DNA from: Candidatus Helarchaeota archaeon
GTDB lineage: Archaea; Asgardarchaeota; Lokiarchaeia; Helarchaeales; RDOG01
DNA length: 64,000 nucleotides
Assembly: GCA_019058315.1 (NCBI GenBank)
Contig: JAHPZH010000004.1
Coordinates: forward strand, 32,001 to 96,000
Direction of reading: 5' to 3'
Each line of letters opens with the position of its first letter. The stretch's first letter is position 1. The notes beneath the pieces are model-generated. The model did not search any database and had not been told where the DNA came from. It worked only from the letters and a program-made list of their open reading frames with translations. A program made the position numbers and the translations under genes. Positions 52,813 to 64,000 of the stretch are shown here, one piece after another.

Positions 52813-53427
52813 TTAGAACACAATTTCAGGAATACTTAATAGGTTTTTTTTGGTGTAATCTTGAATAAAAACCATCGCATCAATAATATCTGCTCGAATA
52901 AGGCCGGGAACATTTATTAAACGTCTATTTTTTTTAATTAGTTCCTTTAAATTTTCTAAAGCCTCAATTTCGGGTTTTAAATTATCGATCAGATTTCCTT
53001 TATCGTTAAAAGCAGTCCTATATAATTCTTTCCAGTTGGTTCCAGTTCCATTCATTAATATATTATAAAATTTTATTCTATTCCTATAAGAATCCTTTAA
53101 GAAACTTATTGCTTCTTCATGAACTTTTGAGCTTTTTCTCAAAACTTGATATATCGGATCTAGACTTAAGACTTCATCAAGTCTATCTTCAATATTTTCA
53201 AAATTTCCTGTAAATTCTTTAGAGAAGCTTAATATTTTATCGAGCATTTCTATAGTCTTTCTGGTTTGTTCGGGACCAATTAAAAGTCTAAAAATAGGTT
53301 CAATCAACGCACCAATAAAGGTGCTTTTAAAATGATCAGATAATTCATTATTTGCGTTTGTTATGGTCTCATTTAGATAGTCTTTTACAATATTAACATT
53401 TTTATCAAGTTCGCTCATTTTCAACAT
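52813..53427 (-). CDS. Helical hypothetical protein (paralog of 52002-52619)
   Basis: IFRLLIGP, NGTG, VPGLIRADII; start overlaps or abuts the regulator stop. Confidence 0.75.
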   Translation of the reverse strand: MLKMSELDKNVNIVKDYLNETITNANNELSDHFKSTFIGALIEPIFRLLIGPEQTRKTIEMLDKILSFSKEFTGNFENIEDRLDEVLSLDPIYQVLRKSSKVHEEAISFLKDSYRNRIKFYNILMNGTGTNWKELYRTAFNDKGNLIDNLKPEIEALENLKELIKKNRRLINVPGLIRADIIDAMVFIQDYTKKNLLSIPEIVF

Positions 53428-54100
53428 CTATTTTAGTAATCAGATATTTACAAGAAGGATGATTATCGCATTTACATTCAACTTCTTTAACATCTACTTC
53501 TTCAGGTGCTATAAATTTATCTATAACTCCTTTGAGCAACCCAACTTGAATTTCACATATTGATCGATAGTCTTTATTACCATCACAAATGCAATTTTGA
53601 ATTTCTAAAAAGAAACTATTCTTGATTTCAGGATTTAAGGCAACCTTTGCTTCAACATTTGCAATTGGATACGTAATTTCCACTGCTAAGGCTGCAAGAT
53701 GAGTGATATTTTCAAAATTTAGTTCAACAGATTGAAACTGTTTGGCGTATAAGTCTGAAGCACCATTTTTAGCCATATCTAACCCAATTTCCCTTGCTAT
53801 TTTTTGATCTTTTAGATATTTTCTAAAAAAGGCAGAATGAAGTAATTGGTAGAATTGAACCATGTATAGATTACGTTCTTCAAAATTTTTTGATTTTCGT
53901 GCAGGATAAAACAATTTGGAAGTTGGTCCCTTCTCAATTTTATAAATCAAATCTTTTTCTGCCAGTTCTTCTAAATATCTCGCTGTTGAATTTCTATTAA
54001 GGTTGATTTTTTCAGCAATCTGTGAAATTGTCAACCCTAAGCTTTCTGTTTCTAGCAGATTAAGTATTTTAAATTTCTGTCTTGAAGATCTTACATTCAA
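53405..54100 (-). CDS. HTH transcription regulator with C-terminal V4R (4-vinyl reductase) domain
   Basis: GLTISQIAEKINLNRNSTARYLEEL HTH; NCIC..ICE..G..G..EVECKC..C.Y V4R pattern; GGTGA RBS. Confidence 0.85.
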   Translation of the reverse strand: MNVRSSRQKFKILNLLETESLGLTISQIAEKINLNRNSTARYLEELAEKDLIYKIEKGPTSKLFYPARKSKNFEERNLYMVQFYQLLHSAFFRKYLKDQKIAREIGLDMAKNGASDLYAKQFQSVELNFENITHLAALAVEITYPIANVEAKVALNPEIKNSFFLEIQNCICDGNKDYRSICEIQVGLLKGVIDKFIAPEEVDVKEVECKCDNHPSCKYLITKIDVENERT

Positions 54101-54116
54101 AAATATTCACCAAATA

Positions 54117-54185
54117 AGGGTCATTTTTTTGACCCTCTAAGTGTTTTTTTTTGTTTATCACGTTTTTTCTTGTTTATCACGTTTT
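54117..54185. promoter_or_regulatory. Inverted repeat plus 16-bp direct repeat in a divergent promoter region
   Basis: AGGGTCA-T6-TGACCCT (54117-54136); TTGTTTATCACGTTTT at 54151-54166 and 54170-54185. Confidence 0.5.
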
Positions 54186-54463
54186 ACTTTAAGATTTTAA
54201 AAATATAATTTAATAACTTAAAAGTATTTTAAAATCATAAAATATTTCTTAAATAATTAATAGCAAATTTGGAGGGTAGTTTTGCTAGTAAGTAAGATTT
54301 TTAAGGCTATAGTTGTCTTTTTTTAACTAATTTGAAAAAATCATTTGATATTTATAATTATAAAATATTAATTTTTATAAATTCAATCCAAAGAGGAAAA
54401 ATATTAATAATTTTGGCAAATATGCAATAATTCGATTAATAGAAAATTTGCTATAATTCTAAA

Positions 54464-57094
54464 ATGAAAATGAAGGGATGTTTTTTGACAGCAGTTGAAG
54501 AGTTTTTTAACGGAAAAAATAAAATTTCAGATCGTGTTCATAATTCTAAGATTATTATAGAGCGAATGGAAGAAATAAACGGTACTTCCCAATTTTTTGC
54601 TGATAGATTGGATAGAAGAATTAAAAAATCAGCAGTTAATTCTCTTCCCGTAGTCGATACTTTCCTCGATTTCTTCCAAATTTCAATTTTAGAGACAATT
54701 TTACAATTTTTTGATCTTCGAGTTAAAGAAATAATCGTAGGCATGGAAAGAATCCCTGAGGAGGCTGTAATTTTTGCTCCTAATCATGAGACCGAAACAG
54801 AGCATCTATATCTTGCTCGTGCTTGTTGCGAAAGGAGGGATTTAGATTATCCTTTTAGAATTTTAAAATTTCTAAATCCTAAGCAAATCGCAAGGAAAAA
54901 ACAGGTTCCAATCTTTTTTGCAAAATATCAATTATTTAACTTGCCGATAGTCAGCACTCTTTTTTCATCTACTGCTTTCCCTGTGGAACGGGAAATAAAG
55001 GATACTAGATCATTAGAAATTGGCAGTAGATTTCTCCAAAGGGGGTCTAATATTCTAATTTATCCCGAAGGAACAAGAAATTTGGAGAAAAAAGCAAAAC
55101 CAAAATCTGGAGCGGTTCGTCTTGCCATTCAAAACAAAGTTCCAATTATTCCAGTTGGACATGTTGGCTTATATGAGCTAACTAAAGGTAGTTTCGTTCC
55201 GAGTAGAAACGGGTACTGGCATTGTGAGTTCGGTGAGCCAATATATTACGACAAATATTACAATCAAGAGGTTGATTACTTAACCTTAAGAGAATTAACC
55301 GACGAACTTATGGATGAAATAGAAAAACTAAAAGAAAATGGTAGGAGAAAAATAAAGGAATTAAATGAAATAAAAGACAATAAAGCATATAGTGGTCATA
55401 TTAATGAAGTGGTGGTACATAAATTTAATAAATTGAATAAGGTTCCAAACAACCCAATTGATTCTTTATTTCGGAGTTTCATGAATTTCACTTCAAAAAT
55501 CCCCATTATTGGAGAACGAGTTGATTCCTTTTTTCATTTCTTAGTTCGTTTGGGTGTTGATTCTTTAATAAATCCGTTAACTTTTGACGTCAAAATTAAT
55601 GGTAAGGAAAACCTAGAAGGTGTAAAACCCGCTGTAATTTGTTCTAATCATGAATCTTTTCTAGAAATTGGACTATATGGTTTGTATTTAATTGATCCTA
55701 AAATGACAAATTATTATGGTTATCTACTACCTGGAGATAATAATAGCATAGATAAAACTTGGTTTATGATGAAGAAGGAACTTGCAGAAATGCCAATTGT
55801 TTCCAGTTGGACTCTTTCTGCTGGTGGTTTTCCGGTAAGAAGAGGGGAAAGTGACAAAGAAGCAATGCGAGTTGCAGAAGAATTAATTAAACGAAATAGA
55901 AATGTGGTAATGTTTCCTCAACAGACTACTTATCCTGAAATTGACGTAGATTCCGGAAAAACTGGAGCAGTGCGCTTAGCAATTGATGCTAAGAGACCAG
56001 TGATTCCAGTATCTATTAAGGGATCACACAATGCTATGAAAAGAGGAGTTTTACAACTTCTTTTCCCACCCAAAGCATTTCCTATTGAAATTAATATTGG
56101 AAAACCGATTTATTATGAAGAATATTATGATAAGGAACCCACATATGAAGAATTGAAGACATTAACTAGAGATTTAATGATTAAAATAAAAGATATGCAA
56201 GATAAGAAAATCGTTGAATATAAGGAAAATAATAATAGAATTCATTCACCAGTAGATTGGATATTTAAAAGTATAGGAAATTTAGTGGGATTACCAAGAA
56301 GAAATTTGCAGGATTCGACTAGAAAACTCCCTTTTGAAAAAATTGTAAATAAAATAACTGATTCAGCAGGAATTACAAGCACAGTTAGTAAAAAAGACAA
56401 GTCAAAAGAACCAGTTTCATTAAATATGATTGATTCATACTTAATGCGTTTGAAGAAACAAGGAGAAAAATTAGGATTATTTCCATTCTTAGACGATCTT
56501 TTTTATTCTTTTACAAAACGTTCATTGGATTTACTAATAAAGAATCTATATAATTTCAAAGTTGAGGGTGCTGAAAATATACCTACTAACGGAGACGTAG
56601 GAGTAATCCTTCTAGCCCAAAGTGGGTCTCAACTTGATTTTGTTATGGGAAGTTGTATTATTCCTGAAAAAGTTCACTTTATGATTGATTCTAAAACTTA
56701 CAAAATGCCTGTTGTATCGACGCTTCTTCAATCTCTTGGGTTTTTTCGTCAATCCGTCTCACAGACAGATTTTGGACCACTTTTACATGTTAGAGATCTG
56801 TTAAAAAGCAAGAAGATTGTTGGAATTTTTCCTCAAATTAAAGGAAAAGAAAACATGATTAAATACATTGCAGGCATTTTAAAAATGGCAATTGATGGGA
56901 AACCGACTATTATCGTTCCACTAGCAATTAAAGGGACAGACACACCAATTCCACCTGTCAATATTAATGTGGCGATAGGTAAACCAATAGGACCATTCAA
57001 AAGAATGAAACGAGAGAAAAGGTACGAACTTGCAGAAGAAATATATAATAATATCAAAGATGTGAAAACTCAAGCCTATGAGATGAGAAAATAA
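54464..57094 (+). CDS. Triple-domain PlsC/LPLAT-family lysophospholipid acyltransferase
   Basis: Domain 1 NHETETE/FAK/FPVER/YPEGTR/VPIIPV; domain 2 NHESFLE/FPVRR/FPQQT/PVIPV; domain 3 degenerate QSGSQLD/GIFPQ/IVPL. Confidence 0.88.
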   Translation: MKMKGCFLTAVEEFFNGKNKISDRVHNSKIIIERMEEINGTSQFFADRLDRRIKKSAVNSLPVVDTFLDFFQISILETILQFFDLRVKEIIVGMERIPEEAVIFAPNHETETEHLYLARACCERRDLDYPFRILKFLNPKQIARKKQVPIFFAKYQLFNLPIVSTLFSSTAFPVEREIKDTRSLEIGSRFLQRGSNILIYPEGTRNLEKKAKPKSGAVRLAIQNKVPIIPVGHVGLYELTKGSFVPSRNGYWHCEFGEPIYYDKYYNQEVDYLTLRELTDELMDEIEKLKENGRRKIKELNEIKDNKAYSGHINEVVVHKFNKLNKVPNNPIDSLFRSFMNFTSKIPIIGERVDSFFHFLVRLGVDSLINPLTFDVKINGKENLEGVKPAVICSNHESFLEIGLYGLYLIDPKMTNYYGYLLPGDNNSIDKTWFMMKKELAEMPIVSSWTLSAGGFPVRRGESDKEAMRVAEELIKRNRNVVMFPQQTTYPEIDVDSGKTGAVRLAIDAKRPVIPVSIKGSHNAMKRGVLQLLFPPKAFPIEINIGKPIYYEEYYDKEPTYEELKTLTRDLMIKIKDMQDKKIVEYKENNNRIHSPVDWIFKSIGNLVGLPRRNLQDSTRKLPFEKIVNKITDSAGITSTVSKKDKSKEPVSLNMIDSYLMRLKKQGEKLGLFPFLDDLFYSFTKRSLDLLIKNLYNFKVEGAENIPTNGDVGVILLAQSGSQLDFVMGSCIIPEKVHFMIDSKTYKMPVVSTLLQSLGFFRQSVSQTDFGPLLHVRDLLKSKKIVGIFPQIKGKENMIKYIAGILKMAIDGKPTIIVPLAIKGTDTPIPPVNINVAIGKPIGPFKRMKREKRYELAEEIYNNIKDVKTQAYEMRK

Positions 57095-57109
57095 TTAGAG
57101 GATAGTTTA

Positions 57110-58486
57110 TTGACGGAATTCACAGAACCAATTCATGCAAAGGAATATGAAAATTTGCCATCCGAGCAAAAAAAGCAAGTAATTAGTCTAAATTACGGTA
57201 AGAAAATGTTACAATTAAAGATTCCAAAACATAATTTTAATGGTCTTATTGAACCAACCGAATTAAAACAAACAAATTCAGATAATCTAAAAATGCTAAA
57301 TAATGCATTAGATAATCCACATAATTGTAATTTGGAAGAATTAATTAAAAATAAGAAAGTATGTATTCTTTTAGAAGATGGAACTAGAAAATCACAACAT
57401 GAATTAATAATTGATGTTGTGACTAACAGATTACAATCTGCAAATAAAATCTCTTATGTAATAACTACTGGGTCTCATGATCCAGATACGGATGAGAATG
57501 AAAAGATAACTGACGCTATTATGGTAGCTGTTGAAAAACATCTAATTCCAAATGTTGAAATTTTAATCCATGATTGCTTCAAACATGAATATATCGATGT
57601 GGGTACAACTAGTTTTGGAACTAAAGTACTAATAAATAAGTTTGCATCCAATTATGATGTTTATTTTGTAATTTCTGATATGAAAACTCATTATTTTGCT
57701 GGATATTCAAATCCAATTAAGAATTTTCTTCCTGGAATTTGTGCTTATGAGACAATTGAAAAAAATCATTCATTAGCACTAGATGATTATTCAACTTTTT
57801 GCAGACACCCTTTACATCCCGAAAAAAACAAAAAAAGACAACCTTTAGCAGAAGATATGCTTGAAGCTGTTTATTTGATGACAAAAAATGCCAATATATT
57901 TGTTTTAGGATTAATTTCTTTAAAAAACAAGATAATATGGTGTGAAGCTGGAGATTTAGCAACTGTTACGGCTAATGGGATTCAAAAAGTAAATCAAATT
58001 GGAAGTTTCGTTTTAGAAGAAAAATCTGATTTTATTATAGTTTCTGCTGGGGGATATCCTTATGATGGTAGTCTTTATGATTCTCAAAGGGCTTTAGAAT
58101 TAACTAAAAATGCTCTAAAAGACGGAGGGGAAATTCTGTTCTTAGCCGAATGTGGAATTGGAGATGGCATCGCACCAAATGAGAAGGCTAAGAAATTTTT
58201 CTATGATGAATTATCAAAACCGTTAGATGAGGTTTTAAGAGGTATAGAAAAAGAATATAAATTATATACTCATAAAGCATATAAATTTGCTAAATTATTA
58301 AAAAATTCAAAAATTTGGGTTAAATCAGGTTTAAATAAAGAAATTTTAGAAAATATTCACTTAAATCCAATCATTGATAATCCTCAAAAAATTATTGATA
58401 ATTGGATAAATCAAAAACCAAATGCCAAAATTACTGCATTTAATCATGGCAGCAAATTGGCTATTTATATTAATAATGGAGGTTGA
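57110..58486 (+). CDS. LarA-family (nickel-pincer) racemase/epimerase
   Basis: DGTR, TGSH, HD, GTTSFGT, HYFAGYS..K..LPG, NHS, GGYPYD..LY, AEC. Confidence 0.85.
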   Translation: MTEFTEPIHAKEYENLPSEQKKQVISLNYGKKMLQLKIPKHNFNGLIEPTELKQTNSDNLKMLNNALDNPHNCNLEELIKNKKVCILLEDGTRKSQHELIIDVVTNRLQSANKISYVITTGSHDPDTDENEKITDAIMVAVEKHLIPNVEILIHDCFKHEYIDVGTTSFGTKVLINKFASNYDVYFVISDMKTHYFAGYSNPIKNFLPGICAYETIEKNHSLALDDYSTFCRHPLHPEKNKKRQPLAEDMLEAVYLMTKNANIFVLGLISLKNKIIWCEAGDLATVTANGIQKVNQIGSFVLEEKSDFIIVSAGGYPYDGSLYDSQRALELTKNALKDGGEILFLAECGIGDGIAPNEKAKKFFYDELSKPLDEVLRGIEKEYKLYTHKAYKFAKLLKNSKIWVKSGLNKEILENIHLNPIIDNPQKIIDNWINQKPNAKITAFNHGSKLAIYINNGG

Positions 58487-58489
58487 AAC

Positions 58490-59956
58490 ATGGCAATAAT
58501 AACAAATGAAGACGTAAATTTAAATGAAAAGAAAGCAATAATATTCGACTGGGATGGAACGCTGTTCAACAGCTTTCCAGCAATTAAAACAGCAACCAAA
58601 GATGTATTAGAAAGATTTGATATTGACTATCCCGTTGATGATGCAGTCATACAATTTTTAAATCTAATGGAAGAAATCAATACAAGTACTCTTTCAGAAA
58701 TAGTATTAAATTCATATAAAATATTAAATAAAATAACATTTATCAAAAATCTATCATATACAAAGAAATTACAATTACTATTTCTGATATATTCAACATA
58801 TAAAAAATACAATGAACAATCTCAATTATTTAAGGGAACTGTCGAGTTATTAAACAATCTATCTAAAAAATTTGATTTGGCAATCTTTACAAGTTCAAAG
58901 AGAAAGGTTATTTTAGAATTATTAGAAAAATTCGGTATTAAAGAATATTTCAAATCCGTCTTAAGTATGGATGATGTTAACAACCCAAAACCAAACCCAG
59001 AAGGTATATTGAAAGCAATATCAGAATTAAATCATGGCCCCGATAACATAATTTATGTAGGCGATTTAAAAACAGACATTTTAGCTGCTAGAGCTGCAAA
59101 TATCAGTTCTATAGCCGTATATAATGGTCTAGTTCAAAGGGAAGAAATTTTAAATCAACAGCCAGATTTATTCTGTGAGCATATAACAGAACTCTCAAAA
59201 TTCTTTGATTTCCCAGAAATCCAAGTTGACCCAAAGGCTGATTTTGAAGCAGATATAGAGTTCCATGCAAAAAAGATAAAAACATATGTTAGAGAAGAAT
59301 TTAATATATTCGAATTATTAGATAACGTTGTTCCAAAAAATTTGGAAACAGAACATGTTATTAAAATAGTAGGCGATCCCTTAGGTTTCATTGGAGCAAT
59401 TGTTGAGGATGTTATTACTAATTATACCCATGGGGAATTTGAAATGAGTTCTGAACTCGATGTATTTACAGGTTTAGAAGAAGATTTATTGCGATCATTA
59501 GGTCTAATTATCATCCATTTTGTTAATGAACGATCCAACAATATGATTAAAAGAATCGTTGAAAATGAATTACTTCGTATTCCATCTAATATTATGCTAG
59601 GTCTTCTAAAGATATCATTAAAAAATTTATATCCAGAAGGATATAAAGAAAATTTTAAAACATTTTTCTTAGGATTATTCCAAAGAATTATTCCACAAGA
59701 TATTTATGATGAGCTAGAGACACTAGATCCACATGAATTTTCAAATCACGTTCTAGAAGGATGCGAACTTGCTTTAATCGATTTAGGATTAAAAAAATCA
59801 GGAGAATTTAATATTCCTATGAATGAACTAGCTTTTAGACCGTTCAATTTCGTCCTTAAATTCATAAATCAAACATTTGGAAGGATGTTCGAACGCTATA
59901 GGAAAATTGCATTGGATATTTTAGAAAATGATTTCAGACGTCTACCAACGAATTAA
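58490..59956 (+). CDS. HAD-superfamily phosphatase with about 250-aa C-terminal helical extension
   Basis: FDWDGTL, FTSS, KPNPE, VGDLKTD; GGAGG RBS. Confidence 0.88.
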   Translation: MAIITNEDVNLNEKKAIIFDWDGTLFNSFPAIKTATKDVLERFDIDYPVDDAVIQFLNLMEEINTSTLSEIVLNSYKILNKITFIKNLSYTKKLQLLFLIYSTYKKYNEQSQLFKGTVELLNNLSKKFDLAIFTSSKRKVILELLEKFGIKEYFKSVLSMDDVNNPKPNPEGILKAISELNHGPDNIIYVGDLKTDILAARAANISSIAVYNGLVQREEILNQQPDLFCEHITELSKFFDFPEIQVDPKADFEADIEFHAKKIKTYVREEFNIFELLDNVVPKNLETEHVIKIVGDPLGFIGAIVEDVITNYTHGEFEMSSELDVFTGLEEDLLRSLGLIIIHFVNERSNNMIKRIVENELLRIPSNIMLGLLKISLKNLYPEGYKENFKTFFLGLFQRIIPQDIYDELETLDPHEFSNHVLEGCELALIDLGLKKSGEFNIPMNELAFRPFNFVLKFINQTFGRMFERYRKIALDILENDFRRLPTN

Positions 59957-59968
59957 CAGGTGATGTAA

Positions 59969-60997
59969 ATTAAAAAGAAGATCGGTATTCCTAGAAGTTT
60001 ATTGTATTATAAATATTATCCCATATGGAAGGCATTTTTTGAAGAACTGGACTTTGAAGTAGTTTTAAGTGATAAAACTAATAATAAAATCATGGATGAA
60101 GGGAGCAGATACGCTATAGACGAAATCTGTATTCCTTTAAAACTCTACTACGGTCATGTTCTTAATTTAATTCGAAAAGAAATTGATTATCTATTCGTTC
60201 CACGATATATTTCCACCACTTTCGGCACATATATGTGCCCAAAGTTTTTAGGTCTACCAGATATGGTAAGAGGAACTCTAGATAACCTTCCAACGATTAT
60301 AGAACTTGAAATTGATTTGAGAAAAAAGCCGAATTTTTATTCTGCTTACGAAACTGGGAGACAATTGAATAGACCTGTCTCTAAAATAATGAAGGCATTC
60401 AATAAATCAATTAAAATATATAAGTTTTTTAGAGAAATAATGGAAAGAGGATTTACATTTCAACAAGCTCTTGCTCTAATAAATAAAAATCCTTCAGAAA
60501 TACCACAAAAAGCAGAGGAAAATAATGCAGAAGCTACTATAGCAATAATAGGGCACGGATATAATATTCATGAACCCTTTATTAACATGGATTTGTTAAA
60601 AAAACTGAAAAAAATGAATGTAAAAGTAATAACATTGGAGAATTTGCCTATAGATATTTTCAAAAAACGAACTATAATCACAAACACCCTAAAAAATTAT
60701 TGGGGTAACGAAGAAGAAATTCTATCCGCAATGAATTATTTATTTGAACAGAAAGATATTGACGGGATAATCTTCATTTGTAGCTTTTGTTGTGGTCCTG
60801 ATTCGTTAATTGATGAAATAATTACAAGAGATGCAAAAAAAATTAATCTTCCATACATCTGCCTTGTTTTAGATGAGCATTCAGGACAAGCTGGAGTAAT
60901 AACAAGGATTGAAGCATTTGTTGATATGATAATTCGTAAGAAGAAAACATTGAAATTAGAAAAAATAGAAAAAATAAAACTAAAAACACCAGATTAA
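59969..60997 (+). CDS. DUF2229 / acyl-CoA dehydratase-activase-related reductase subunit (PlsA/PlsR-like); probable ATT start
   Basis: The frame extends upstream of TTG 60002 to IKKKIGIPRSLLYY (conserved IGIPR); CIPLK..GHV, CPKFLGLPD, GHGYN, FCCGPD, DEHSGQAG..TRIEAF. Confidence 0.85.
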   Translation: MKKKIGIPRSLLYYKYYPIWKAFFEELDFEVVLSDKTNNKIMDEGSRYAIDEICIPLKLYYGHVLNLIRKEIDYLFVPRYISTTFGTYMCPKFLGLPDMVRGTLDNLPTIIELEIDLRKKPNFYSAYETGRQLNRPVSKIMKAFNKSIKIYKFFREIMERGFTFQQALALINKNPSEIPQKAEENNAEATIAIIGHGYNIHEPFINMDLLKKLKKMNVKVITLENLPIDIFKKRTIITNTLKNYWGNEEEILSAMNYLFEQKDIDGIIFICSFCCGPDSLIDEIITRDAKKINLPYICLVLDEHSGQAGVITRIEAFVDMIIRKKKTLKLEKIEKIKLKTPD

Positions 60998-61023
60998 CGA
61001 ATATAAATCGGTGAATACAGTAA

Positions 61024-62139
61024 ATGTTAGTGACTTTCCCTCATATGGGCAATTGTTGGCCTGCTTTCAAAAGCCTTTGCGAAAATATGGGTGCAGATGT
61101 CTATTTACCCAATGAAAATAACACTCAACAGTTAAAAGTAGGATTAAAACATTCCCCTGAATGGGTTTGTTTTCCATTTAAAGTCACACTTTCAAATTTT
61201 GTTGAATGTCTTGAGAATAACGTGAATAAAATAGTAATGGCCACAGATTGCGGACCATGTAGATTCGGATTCTATTATGCTGTCCAAGAGCGCATTTTAA
61301 AAGATTTAGGCTATGAATTTGATATGTATCATCTCCCTCAAGGAGATCTTTTAACTTTAGAATGGGCGGATTTCCTCAGATCAATTTGTGAAGATAAATC
61401 CTATGCTACAACATTAAACATCTATAGGACAGCAAGGGTTTATTTAATGAAATGTCAATTAATTCAAATCACAGAAAAATTAGAAGGTAAAACTAGGTGT
61501 TATGAAAAAAATAAAGGAGATACAACTAGATGCCTTAAACGTTGCGTTAGAATGATTGACGATGCTAAAACTTACTCTCAATTGAGAAAAACAAGATGGA
61601 AAATTAAGGAAGAATTTAAGAAGATTGATCAACACAAACACAATGGTCAAGCTCTTAAAGTAGGTTTAACTGGGGAGATTCAAGTAACTTTGGATCCTTT
61701 TGTTAACCACGATATTAAACGAAAATTGGGAGAATTGGGATGCGAAGTCCATATGGACTTGAGTCTATATGATTGGATGAAGCACAAATTCCATATTAAT
61801 TTCCATAGAAAATATGTTGAATATTTAAGTAAAACACATAAAAAAATCGGGGGAATTCAATTGGATATTGGAGGAGAGGCATACTGGGTTTTAGGCGAAT
61901 ACATAAATTGGGCTCATAAGGGGTTTGATGGATTTGTACATATTTATCCATTTACTTGTATGCCTGAAATAACCGCGAAATCCATTATAACGAAATGGTA
62001 TGGCGACGAACGCTTTCAACTCCCTCCAGCATTTTTCGGATTTGACGAACACGCTGGAGAAGCCGGTTTAGTTACCCGACTGGAGGCATATACCGATTTA
62101 TTAAAAGCAAAAAAGGAGAAAAAAAATGGTAATAGTTGA
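61024..62139 (+). CDS. 2-hydroxyacyl-CoA dehydratase-like reductase subunit (PlsR-like)
   Basis: VTFPHMG, SPEWVCFPFK, GPCRFG.Y, GEI, PFTCMPE, DEHAGEAG..TRLEA. Confidence 0.85.
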   Translation: MLVTFPHMGNCWPAFKSLCENMGADVYLPNENNTQQLKVGLKHSPEWVCFPFKVTLSNFVECLENNVNKIVMATDCGPCRFGFYYAVQERILKDLGYEFDMYHLPQGDLLTLEWADFLRSICEDKSYATTLNIYRTARVYLMKCQLIQITEKLEGKTRCYEKNKGDTTRCLKRCVRMIDDAKTYSQLRKTRWKIKEEFKKIDQHKHNGQALKVGLTGEIQVTLDPFVNHDIKRKLGELGCEVHMDLSLYDWMKHKFHINFHRKYVEYLSKTHKKIGGIQLDIGGEAYWVLGEYINWAHKGFDGFVHIYPFTCMPEITAKSIITKWYGDERFQLPPAFFGFDEHAGEAGLVTRLEAYTDLLKAKKEKKNGNS

Positions 62140-63130
62140 AGAAAAAGTATCTGATAAAAAAACTTTTGGTGATTTATACTTAGGCATTGATGTAGGAAGT
62201 GTTTCTACAAAATTTGCAATAATTGATGACAATATGGAGCTGAAATATGCCACTTGGGCAAGATCTAAAGGCTCACCTATTACCTCTATCCAAGAAGGAT
62301 TTGATAGTTTAAGAAAAAGTCTATCTGATGAAATGGAATCACGGATTAAAGGAGTAGGAACCACAGGATCTGCAAGATACTTAACTAAAGCACTTGTGGG
62401 TGCAGATATTGCAAAAACTGAAATTATTGCTCATGCAGTGGCAGCATCTTACTATATTCCTGGCGTTAGAACCATCTTGGAAATTGGAGGTCAAGATAGT
62501 AAAGTAATACTGCTGAAAGATGGAATTATAACCGATTTTGCCATGAATTCTATTTGTGCAGCAGGAACTGGTTCATTTCTTGATCATCAAGCACACAGGT
62601 TGGGAATAGCTATAGAAGAATTTGGTGAGATGGCAGCTAAATCAAAAGTAGGGGTAGTTATTGCTGGTAGATGCACTGTTTTTGCAGAATCAGACATGAT
62701 ACATAAACAACAGATGGGACATTCTAAAGAAGATATAATAAAAGGACTTTGTGAAGCATTGGTTCGAAATTATTTGAATAATGTTTGTAAAGGAAAGAAA
62801 TTAGAACCACCAATCACTTTTCAAGGTGGAGTTGCTGCAAATTCGGGAATAAAAACAGCCTTTGAAAAGGAACTAGGGCATGATATTATAATTCATGATT
62901 ATTTCCTTACGATGGGAGCAATAGGAGCTGCAATGTTAGCAAGAGAGCATATTTTAGGTGAAAATACAACAACTAGCTTTCGTGGATTTAAAGTTAGTGA
63001 TATGAAATTTACACCAAAAGCTTTCAATTGTTCTGATTGTCCCAACCAATGTGAAGTCACTTATGTTGAGAAGGATGGCGGAGATATTATTGCTCGTTGG
63101 GGCGATAGATGTGGTAAATGGACTATGTAG
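62126..63130 (+). CDS. ATP-dependent acyl-CoA dehydratase activase (BcrAD/BadFG ASKHA family)
   Basis: GIDVGSVSTK, TTGSAR, EIGGQDSK, MNSICAAGTGSFL, RCTVFAESD, QGGVA; C-terminal FNCSDCPNQC...RC. Confidence 0.93.
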   Translation: MVIVEEKVSDKKTFGDLYLGIDVGSVSTKFAIIDDNMELKYATWARSKGSPITSIQEGFDSLRKSLSDEMESRIKGVGTTGSARYLTKALVGADIAKTEIIAHAVAASYYIPGVRTILEIGGQDSKVILLKDGIITDFAMNSICAAGTGSFLDHQAHRLGIAIEEFGEMAAKSKVGVVIAGRCTVFAESDMIHKQQMGHSKEDIIKGLCEALVRNYLNNVCKGKKLEPPITFQGGVAANSGIKTAFEKELGHDIIIHDYFLTMGAIGAAMLAREHILGENTTTSFRGFKVSDMKFTPKAFNCSDCPNQCEVTYVEKDGGDIIARWGDRCGKWTM

Positions 63131-63138
63131 GTGATTTT

Positions 63139-63324
63139 ATGGCGTATGTTATTAGAAAAACCCTAGATGTCCTTATTAATCGCTTTATTTTTGAAGATCG
63201 TGTTAGAATTTCGGAATTTGTAGATATGATAACAGATAATTTATATAAGATTCTGCCAAAAAATTTGGTAAGACCTGTTCATGAAATATTAGATGCTTTT
63301 GTCGACGAACTCATGTGGAGTTAA
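63139..63324 (+). CDS. Small hypothetical protein (61 aa), last gene of the putative operon
   Basis: AGGTGA RBS before ATG 63139; T-rich tract after the stop. Confidence 0.55.
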   Translation: MAYVIRKTLDVLINRFIFEDRVRISEFVDMITDNLYKILPKNLVRPVHEILDAFVDELMWS

Positions 63325-63504
63325 TGTATTTTTATTTTTTATAATTTATACTGTCCTTTTTTCAGAAAAAAGAAAAATATTATAAGACCATTAAATAGGT
63401 TTTTATAAGTTATTTTTCAGACTAATAAGCGATAGAATATTATTTAGCACAAATTTTACTATTACATTAAATTAAAATTATTTGTAAATGGAGCGATTTT
63501 AAAA

Positions 63505-64000
63505 TTGGTTACCAGTTCTATAATTAAAACTACACAAAGTTTATGTCCAGAATGTAAAAAGGTTATTGATGCACAGATAGTGGAAGAAAATGGCAAAGTA
63601 ATGATGTATAAAAAATGTGAAGAACACGGAAATTTCTCGGATATATTATCTATTAATCCAGCCCACTTTAGATGGAGCCAACAATTTATGATTAATGGAC
63701 AAAAACCAGATAATCCATGTACTTCAACCAAAAAAGGCTGTCCATACGATTGTGGAGCTTGCGAGAAACATAAAAGCTCTCCAGCCATTGCAATTGTTGA
63801 TGTAACATATCGATGTAATTTAAAATGTCCAATCTGTTTTGCTAATGCAGAGGCTCGTGGGCTTAATTATGAACCTTCATTTGAAGAATTAGTTAGAATA
63901 TTTAAACATTTTAGAAATATAACTCCTCAACCTCCAGTTTGTGCAATGTATGCTGGTGGTGAACCCACTATGCGAAATGATTTACCTGAGTTGTTGGCTG
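63505..64000 (+). CDS. tes: Tetraether lipid synthase (Tes/GDGT-MAS, MJ0619-family) radical SAM enzyme, 3'-truncated
   Basis: Manual translation from TTG 63505: TQSLCPEC...KCEEHG...GCPYDCGACEKH...IVDVTYRCNLKCPICFANA...YEPSFEE...GGEPT; absent from the ORF track because it runs off the edge. Confidence 0.8.
   Translation, partial: MVTSSIIKTTQSLCPECKKVIDAQIVEENGKVMMYKKCEEHGNFSDILSINPAHFRWSQQFMINGQKPDNPCTSTKKGCPYDCGACEKHKSSPAIAIVDVTYRCNLKCPICFANAEARGLNYEPSFEELVRIFKHFRNITPQPPVCAMYAGGEPTMRNDLPELLA

Follow-up and report, generated by a model that had tools for sequence, protein, structure and literature searches.

In bacteria, ester lipids are converted to ether lipids by PlsA/PlsR and by the glycerol ester reductase Ger (PMC13159169, PMC12838417). 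The domain order published for PlsA is Act1, Act2, Red1, Red2 (PMC12838417), and the published architecture of Ger is BBD plus H/D domains (PMC13159169). Homologues of PlsC and PlsY (PMC6737245, PMC13400652) as well as homologues of Ger and of the synthase that makes membrane-spanning lipids (PMC13159169) have already been published for Lokiarchaeota. Here, a gene cluster is described that is part of a stretch of 64,000 nt from a Candidatus Helarchaeota archaeon (contig JAHPZH010000004.1, positions 32,001 to 96,000), and the whole stretch is called the window in the following. The cluster (54464-63324) contains genes for an acyltransferase, a phosphatase and a three-gene reductase, and a description of the operon itself was not found in the searchable literature, including a 2026 review. 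Our preferred reading, which is tentative and to which slightly less than even confidence is given, is that the locus is the Helarchaeales form of a Lokiarchaeia-wide operon under a divergent helix-turn-helix (HTH) regulator, that its core is a conserved module of acyltransferase, phosphatase and reductase by which acyl-derived ether lipids are formed, and that a LarA homologue and a paralogue of the tetraether synthase Tes are lineage-specific additions.

The host genome has a size of 5.8 Mb and a G+C content of 30%, and the relatives closest to it by protein carry the labels Helarchaeota or Lokiarchaeota. The list of open reading frames (ORFs) together with Pfam and NCBIfam searches verified seven tightly packed, co-oriented genes and a Tes-like gene after a further 180 nt, as had been described in an earlier note made from the sequence alone. 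All seven genes are on the plus strand, with spacings of 3-26 nt or small overlaps. The first gene (54464..57094) encodes an 876-aa fusion of three PlsC/LPLAT-type acyltransferase domains, d1 to d3 (three PF01553 stretches; TIGR00530, 139.7 bits). Next are the genes for a LarA-family 2-hydroxyacid racemase/epimerase homologue, a family with a nickel-pincer cofactor (57110..58486; Lar_N and LarA_C), and for a haloacid dehalogenase (HAD)-IA phosphatase that is extended by about 240 aa at its C-terminus (58490..59956; HAD_2, 1.3e-35; DxDxT motif). Then follows the reductase trio, i.e., Da, the first DUF2229/HGD-D-fold subunit, which corresponds to Red1 (59969..60997; PF09989, 2e-53, N-terminus included; HGD-D, 34 bits), Db, the second, divergent paralogous subunit, which corresponds to Red2 (61024..62139; weak DUF2229 match, full-length alignment to fused proteins), and a single-copy activase ATPase of the BcrAD_BadFG type (62126..63130; PF01869, 7e-49; TIGR00241, 197 bits). 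The last gene encodes a helical protein (63118..63324), a conserved small ORF after the activase. Its length had been given as 61 aa; it is 68 aa, and its ATG at 63118 overlaps the 3' part of the activase gene, an overlap that the gene calls of relatives also have. The successive spacings are 15, 3, 12 (45 if the first TTG is taken as the start of Da) and 26 nt, followed by overlaps of 14 and 13 nt and the gap of 180 nt.

The reductase trio was compared with its relatives. Bacterial homologues that were fetched with an alignment of Da were proteins of about 1400 aa with the order Act-Act-Da-Db, which equals the published orders of both PlsA and Ger. Db of the window could be aligned over its full length to the last third of at least 50 of these fused proteins, and the activase aligned to their second Act domain, including the tail. 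The domain set of PlsA/PlsR and Ger, which the earlier note had recognized here, is thus present. The activase is one gene of 334 aa, whereas the fused relatives have two activation domains (BB or Act1-Act2), and its cluster-bridging cysteine motifs are CAAGTG and RCTVFAES. The tail CxxCxNxC...RC was present in all 100 DUF2229-linked activase tails that were examined and missing from the four other activase paralogues of the genome, so that it is indeed typical of the group, as had been proposed. Da and Db are paralogues with an identity of about 20%, and an alignment across Asgard and Clostridia sequences revealed three invariant cysteines in each of them (Cys54, Cys90 and Cys275 in Da; Cys49, Cys79 and Cys312 in Db). 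Judged from these alignments, Da, Db and the activase are homologous to Red1, Red2 and Act of the PlsA/Ger-type enzymes.

The similarity to the 2-hydroxyacyl-CoA dehydratases was much lower. Da matched only part of the HGD-D model PF06050 with 34 bits, and Db did not match it. Dehydratase sequences of the PDB were found by Da with E-values of 0.008-0.02, and Db had no match to solved structures by sequence up to an E-value of 1. The structure model of Da had a predicted local distance difference test (pLDDT) score of 87.9, and its top Foldseek matches were 3O3N_B, 7YYL, 6ENO, 9G87 and 8S02, with the beta subunit of HadBC, DCCP and Bzd/Mbd subunits among them (12-16% identity, E-values of 8e-11 to 1e-6, template modelling scores of about 0.5-0.57). 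Because Da barely matches dehydratases by sequence, Db does not match them and the Da model has the HadBC/DCCP/Bzd fold, the trio was placed, on the basis of sequence and model, in the DUF2229 branch of the benzoyl-CoA reductase/2-hydroxyacyl-CoA dehydratase (BCR/HAD) superfamily, and it is not a true 2-hydroxyacyl-CoA dehydratase, in line with what the earlier note had expected. In addition, no CoA-transferase was found among the cluster proteins with Pfam and NCBIfam.

The start of Da deserves a separate description. The N-terminal motif KIGIPRSL precedes every ATG, GTG and TTG. In the window (59958-59971) and in related loci (L012:8899-8913; L125, L002, L010, L011, L013) the start region consists of a GGTG(A) sequence, which resembles a ribosome-binding site, and a following ATT, or ATA in one case; the GGTG(A) is conserved in seven Helarchaeales loci. 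The GTG of this sequence is separated from the ATT by an in-frame TAA in two of the loci, the window and L012. Because KIGIPRSL is upstream of any ATG, GTG or TTG and an in-frame TAA follows the GTG, initiation of Da at an AUU codon (ATT at 59969) is likely. Selenocysteine was also considered, as paralogues of about 800 aa in other genomes had been flagged "1 TGA"; one of them was translated and had no internal in-frame stop, and the idea was rejected.

The conservation of the cluster was analyzed with a sample of 151 genomes of the class Lokiarchaeia. Da was present in 126 of them, including 38 of the 40 high-quality genomes, and PlsC-like matches were present in 137. The best two-domain PlsC matches were located within about 600 nt of Da in 21 of 27 cases; two others were at a distance of 3-7 kb on the same contig, and four were in genomes without a Da match. 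Loci that were fetched from five families had the order HAD, PlsC(d1-d2), Da, Db, activase, small ORF, PlsC(d3), or contained some of these genes in that order, and the acyltransferase-reductase linkage was retained over the Lokiarchaeia families down to a Da identity of about 40%. The conserved core consists of the HAD enzyme, three PlsC domains (two that look active and one without the His), Da, Db, the activase and the small protein. Because this core recurs in most of the 151 related genomes, the arrangement is far beyond chance, and the synteny of the reductase with PlsC-type acyltransferases extends across the class. Within the phylum, split-type Da is concentrated in Lokiarchaeia and was found in just two or three other families; it was not found in more than 20 other sampled families.

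The form of the core differs between the lineages. In Lokiarchaeia outside the Helarchaeales, d1-d2 and d3 are encoded by separate genes on either side of the reductase genes, whereas Helarchaeales have a fusion of both acyltransferase genes, which encodes the 876-aa protein, and a HAD enzyme with the extension. Two loci of other Lokiarchaeia (L014:8238-13095 and L018:8781-18338) have a second Da-activase-Db system inserted within the cluster; the Da of the inserted system has 833-846 aa due to an N-terminal fusion with FAD_binding_4, and L018 contains an additional fused Act-Act-Da copy alongside. The cluster of L014 also includes an ORF of 1049 aa with LAGLIDADG endonuclease domains (L014:13509-16658) and a Db copy with an in-frame stop (L014:17451-18563).

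The PF01553 family, to which the acyltransferase domains belong, overwhelmingly comprises glycerolipid or lysolipid acyltransferases. In d1, the motifs H-x4-E and PEGTR were found in all Helarchaeales loci examined. In d2, the first motif is H-x4-E in the window and H-x4-D in the relatives, and block III reads PQQTT. The d3-type domain lacks the catalytic histidine in all Lokiarchaeia loci examined. In other Lokiarchaeia d1 and d2 both have the canonical H-x4-D and PEGT motifs, so that the class-wide pattern is probably that of two active domains and one degenerate domain. The only match of the acyltransferase to PlsC of T. maritima (5KYM; E 1e-6) covered d2. With the PlsC equivalog model of NCBIfam, the protein scored 36.9 bits, compared with a cut-off of 501. 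All PF01553 domains of the genome reside in the 876-aa protein; the family was present in ten of ten bacterial and in none of four archaeal control genomes. For the HAD enzyme, the closest NCBIfam models were phosphoglycolate and sugar-phosphate phosphatases, every score being under the cut-off. In other Lokiarchaeia an extension-free HAD protein of 258-265 aa is encoded at the equivalent position. The extension of about 240 aa is Helarchaeales-specific and had no family match, and an Atlas search with residues 245-488 yielded no usable look-alike. A pairing of a HAD domain with an acyltransferase is also known from plants, whose bifunctional sn-2 acyltransferases GPAT4/6 contain both; the pairing of the two genes in the window resembles it.

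The lipid-gene background of the genome was also inspected. Neither PlsY nor the C-terminal domain of GpsA was found in the genome, and a glycerol-1-phosphate dehydrogenase is likely present. Acyl-CoA is the likely acyl donor, because no clear type-II ketoacyl synthase or fatty-acid synthase was found in the genome and yet more than 20 genes for AMP-binding, acyl-CoA-ligase-like proteins are present. These are partly arranged in tandem, e.g., at C3:1217705-1220769 and C11:536908-541601. PP-binding yielded a single weak match.

The small protein of 68 aa is a further constant element. An ORF of this kind follows the activase in every Asgard locus that was examined, even in one where the reductase trio occurs without PlsC, and it has invariant Ser, Asp and Pro positions. 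No counterpart was found behind the activases of Clostridia. In a three-chain model the protein was docked on the helical middle part of Db, with an ipSAE (interface score) of 0.83 compared with 0.01 for the best control, a partner pLDDT of at least 72 and an agreement between the runs in at least 83% of the contacts. Of 80 solved complexes, 58 attain the mark for the docking score, compared with 2 of 110 mismatched pairs. Because no DUF2229 structure has been solved, a memory of a known complex is unlikely as the source of this docking. The model thus suggests that the 68-aa protein is likely a fourth subunit that docks on Db; it was found with the Asgard systems only.

According to the preferred reading, d1 and d2 would attach acyl groups, for which acyl-CoA is the probable source, in ester linkage to a backbone of the glycerol-phosphate type, and a phosphate would be removed by the HAD enzyme. 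A homodimer of the activase, replacing the fused Act1-Act2, would spend ATP to drive a low-potential electron into the Fe-S centres of a Da/Db heterodimer, which would carry the 68-aa protein on Db. The reduction of an ester carbonyl by Da/Db would then yield an alk-1-enyl or alkyl ether, the reaction known from the bacterial PlsA/PlsR and Ger. In this scheme LarA would be optional, and it would probably epimerise a 2-hydroxy compound that feeds or modifies the pathway. By analogy, ester-to-ether lipid chemistry is the best-supported reading of the locus.

The place of the trio in the family was analyzed with a tree of Da, which was rooted with Db. The fused set of this tree consisted of homologues from named genomes, including C. 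sporogenes and Thermodesulfatator, which stood in for the experimentally tested PlsA/PlsR and Ger. The fused clade (support 100/99) comprises bacteria, including Clostridium sporogenes, Thermodesulfatator and Bacteroidales, and a few fused Asgard copies; the fused copies of the Ger type that some Lokiarchaeia have (L015-L017) form a clade distinct from the genes of the window. The split clade comprises Asgard sequences (100/98) and trios of Clostridia (96/86), which are joined with the weaker support of 87/61. The trio of the window is inside the split clade and outside of the clade with PlsA/Ger architecture, so that the direct grouping with PlsA/PlsR/Ger that the earlier note had predicted had to be given up. 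The duplication that led to Da and Db is older in the tree than the divergence of split and fused forms. The Clostridia trios have the order Da-Db-activase as in the window and share the tail ARWGDRCGKW, and their identities are 35-44% for Da and 50-61% for the activase.

Several of these results weigh against ester-to-ether chemistry. The trio belongs to a split subfamily in which the chemistry is putative for every member and whose nearest bacterial relatives are the Clostridia trios; the identity of its Da to the Da domains of fused PlsA/Ger-type proteins is about 25-33%. No PlsC-like ORF was found within about 7 kb of ten Clostridia trios with a hidden Markov model built from Asgard domains, which a very divergent bacterial PlsC could escape. 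Pfam likewise revealed no PlsC among ten immediate neighbours of these trios, and their neighbourhoods were varied and non-lipid. PlsC is missing in one close relative in which the small protein and all three reductase genes are present. Furthermore, the motif aspartate of d1 is replaced by glutamate throughout the Helarchaeales loci examined, the same replacement is seen in d2 only here, and d3 lacks the histidine; no membrane helices were predicted in the cluster proteins. Lastly, archaeal lipids only were reported in a lipid analysis of a cultured Lokiarchaeon, although esters may have been missed by the method, as stated in PMC13400652. The case for lipid chemistry is therefore based on the acyltransferase linkage that is conserved within Asgard, and not on orthology to a tested enzyme.

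LarA turned out to be an accessory member of the cluster. Its best NCBIfam score was 232 bits, compared with cut-offs of 460-540. An alignment to the malate racemase Mar2 (6D6Z) revealed that the H-x9-K-x15-H spacing and the upstream histidine are kept, i.e., the catalytic His, the cofactor-binding Lys and the Ni-binding His are present. It is linked to the cluster in five of eight assessable Helarchaeales loci, in four of them in line and in the fifth divergently upstream. It is missing from the other three and from all non-Helarchaeales loci examined, and thus from many loci that keep the remaining genes. A role of LarA in a stereo-inversion of the backbone is speculative.

The Tes-like gene starts at 63505 on the plus strand, behind the AT-rich gap of 180 nt, reaches the end of the window at 64000 and continues to the window-equivalent position 65124; the genes further downstream are on the other strand. 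It is probably driven by its own promoter. The encoded radical SAM protein of 539 aa has the domains Zn_ribbon_HMPTM and Radical_SAM and matched the glycerol dialkyl glycerol tetraether (GDGT)-macrocyclic archaeol synthase, GDGT-MAS (7TOL), over its full length (2.7e-105). Its score with the Tes model NF045702 was 429.5 bits and thus below the NCBIfam cut-off of 450. Of the four Tes-family genes in the genome, a single one, on contig C3, is above the cut-off, with 568.8 bits, and the three paralogues besides this canonical Tes have about 430-435 bits; the neighbour of the cluster has a twin of 76% identity elsewhere in the genome. The other copies (L005:10177-11808, L006:10095-11786 and L007:10028-11614, on contigs C5, C2 and C3) have no lipid genes beside them. 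Helarchaeales genomes generally have two to four Tes-family copies.

The adjacency of this gene to the cluster is no assembly artefact, because the junction is spanned by a contig of 1.9 kb from an independent study (run X2), which is about 98% identical and extends from the activase over the small ORF into the first part of the Tes-like gene. The adjacency recurs in two further Helarchaeales assemblies (L125 and L126), with Tes identities of 93% and 81%. In L125, genes for an acyl-CoA dehydrogenase and an HMGL-like protein follow the Tes-like gene on the same strand (L125:12337-14917). In 150 other genomes of the class no Tes-like gene was found within 10 kb of the trio, the nearest being 25 kb away. 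The locus has no Tes-like gene in a genome of the same family, in the families f2 and f3, and on another long Helarchaeota contig; the family f5 has the cluster and no close TesA-type gene. The link of Tes to the cluster is thus a trait of a sub-lineage (three assemblies and one strain contig). Of the earlier claim that a Tes homolog belongs to the cluster, the adjacency and the family assignment stood; the gene is a paralogue and not canonical Tes, and it is distributed independently outside of the narrow sub-lineage. In a Pirellulales metagenome-assembled genome (L060:3-6786), a compact arrangement of a MarR gene, a fused Ger/PlsA-like gene (1511 aa) and a Tes gene above the cut-off (501.8 bits) was found, which is a candidate bacterial cassette for ether and membrane-spanning lipids. 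Because of this independent pairing, a functional link of reductase and Tes may exist.

Upstream of the cluster, the divergent regulator gene is located on the minus strand (53405..54100). It encodes a winged-helix protein with an IclR/MarR/TrmB-like HTH domain (Pfam HTH_IclR, HTH_24 and MarR), and its divergent position is kept in five other Helarchaeales loci, with identities of 60-82%. Relatives of the regulator have a weak match to the V4R ligand domain. Between this gene and the acyltransferase gene, two copies of the direct repeat GTTTATCACGTTTT are 19 nt apart (54153-54186). No further copy is present in the window, and the repeat was not conserved in the five related Helarchaeales loci that were checked; it may be an operator. 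A scan for bacterial promoters and terminators performed no better than with shuffled sequence, the bacterial model not being applicable to an archaeon.

Several other explanations were weighed against the preferred reading. A possible, though rather unlikely, explanation is that the split Da/Db/activase system acts on a substrate other than membrane lipids, such as an acyl-CoA derivative or a small molecule that is acylated or has a 2-hydroxy group. The role of PlsC and HAD would then be to make or process this non-membrane compound, for instance a product for storage, signalling or detoxification, and the likeness to PlsA/Ger would reflect the ATP-driven Fe-S radical machinery alone. The separation of the split from the fused clade, the varied non-lipid contexts of the Clostridia trios, one of which adjoins a D-2-hydroxyacid dehydrogenase gene, the locus with the trio alone and the lack of membrane helices in all products would fit this view, as would the fact that LarA and phosphoglycolate-phosphatase-like HAD proteins belong to families acting on small hydroxy acids. 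In addition, the dedicated regulator, with a ligand-binding domain in its relatives, suggests that the function is inducible and not of the housekeeping type. It is opposed by the predominant lipid specificity of PF01553 enzymes, by the acyltransferase-reductase link that is kept across the Lokiarchaeia families, and by a conserved core that contains neither a CoA-transferase nor an acyl-CoA dehydrogenase. The alternative raised in the earlier note, namely that LarA and the dehydratase-like trio function in 2-hydroxy-acid fermentation and that the acyltransferase is linked incidentally, is extremely improbable. The retained catalytic residues of LarA and the Clostridia trio beside the dehydrogenase would be consistent with it, but Da and Db are not of the HgdAB type, as the weak or missing PF06050 matches and the PDB E-values of about 0.01 or no match indicate, a CoA-transferase is missing, and it is the PlsC link that is constant and LarA that varies. 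It is also improbable that the operon, instead of forming membrane lipids de novo, serves to scavenge or remodel ester lipids of bacteria that are taken up from the sediment, by re-acylation, dephosphorylation and reduction, with induction via the divergent regulator. This would agree with the many acyl-CoA ligases, the lack of a clear fatty-acid synthase or PlsY, the dedicated regulator and the origin from a sediment metagenome, but the conserved core includes no lipase, phospholipase or transporter. Moreover, the chemistry would remain an ester-to-ether reduction, which makes scavenging a variant of the preferred reading and not its opposite.

A further explanation, a full pathway in which fatty-acid-derived ether lipids are formed, LarA sets the stereochemistry of the backbone and the Tes paralogue couples the tails into branched-GDGT-like or hybrid tetraethers, was judged very improbable. 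It would explain the Tes-like gene about 180 nt past the cluster in three assemblies (78-93% identity) and on the independent strain contig, the three extra Tes paralogues besides the canonical one, and the Pirellulales genome with a Tes gene above the cut-off immediately behind a fused Ger-like gene; in addition, no GpsA was found, which leaves the source of glycerol-3-phosphate unclear. Against it stand the absence of Tes-like genes within 10 kb of the trio in the 150 other genomes, their absence from the locus in the same family and in f2 and f3, the family f5 with the cluster and no close TesA-type gene, and the absence of LarA from three of eight Helarchaeales loci and all other Lokiarchaeia loci examined. 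To our knowledge, characterized LarA enzymes use 2-hydroxy carboxylates and not glycerol phosphates as substrates, which also counts against such a pathway. The membrane-spanning and the stereo-inversion parts of the earlier note are speculative. Of its ether-lipid pathway, the domain set and the class-wide PlsC linkage were retained, while Tes and LarA as constant parts and the grouping with the PlsA/Ger clade were not. The preferred reading, an acyltransferase-phosphatase-reductase module for acyl-derived ether lipids, keeps the retained parts only.

The results bear on the open problem of how eukaryotes, which have membranes of fatty-acyl esters, could arise from an archaeal host whose membranes consisted of isoprenoid ethers. 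Homologues of PlsC and Ger have been listed separately for Lokiarchaeota, and they were not found as one conserved operon in searchable papers. With the operon, a concrete set of genes is available for expression, and a concrete class of lipids can be sought in cultured Asgard strains. In addition, a cross-domain "split" PlsA/Ger subfamily with putative chemistry and an extra Asgard-only subunit is defined by sequence comparison. The links to LarA and the Tes paralogue are lineage-specific; they suggest experiments and do not represent a demonstrated pathway. If Lokiarchaeia had acyl-derived ether glycerolipids that are coupled by Tes in this lineage into branched-GDGT-like or hybrid tetraethers, which is a very doubtful proposition, they would represent an extant archaeal intermediate between the two sides of the lipid divide, and LarA would supply the backbone or head-group stereoisomer needed by bacterial-type acyltransferases.

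Finally, the locus was compared with known systems. PlsA/PlsR (CPE1194/1195 of C. perfringens; single-gene PlsA in E. faecalis, L. cremoris and B. longum; PMC12838417) has the same four modules. It shares with the window the activation ATPase, two DUF2229/HGD-D-fold reduction/dehydration domains with Fe-S cysteine ligands and the activase tail motif, and both are oxygen-sensitive machineries of the BCR/HAD family. In contrast to PlsA/PlsR, the window has three separate genes, one activase in place of Act1-Act2 and an extra protein of 68 aa; its genes belong to another clade, are known here from their sequence, and are in an operon with acyltransferase and HAD genes. Ger (Tmari_0479 of T. maritima; SHJ90043 of D. 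alkenivorans; PMC13159169) has the B (PF01869), D (PF09989) and H (PF06050) domains in common with the window, but BBD and HD are united in a single chain of about 1400 aa, unlike the split genes here. HadBC, DCCP and Bzd/Mbd share the fold of the catalytic subunits and the BcrAD-type ATP-dependent activation; they differ in that they lack the DUF2229 signature and that their substrates are CoA-thioesters or small molecules. The PlsC of T. maritima (5KYM) shares the PF01553 fold and blocks I-IV with the acyltransferase of the window, which differs by having three domains in one chain, glutamate in place of the motif aspartate in d1 and d2, a His-less d3 and no membrane helix. Tes/GDGT-MAS (7TOL; PMC8941075) has the Zn ribbon and radical SAM domains in common with the neighbour of the cluster, which in turn is under the equivalog cut-off and one of three paralogues beside a canonical Tes. 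The split trios of Clostridia, which also occur in other anaerobes, form the sister clade and have the same gene order and a single activase as the window, but they have variable contexts and lack PlsC or HAD neighbours as well as the small fourth gene.

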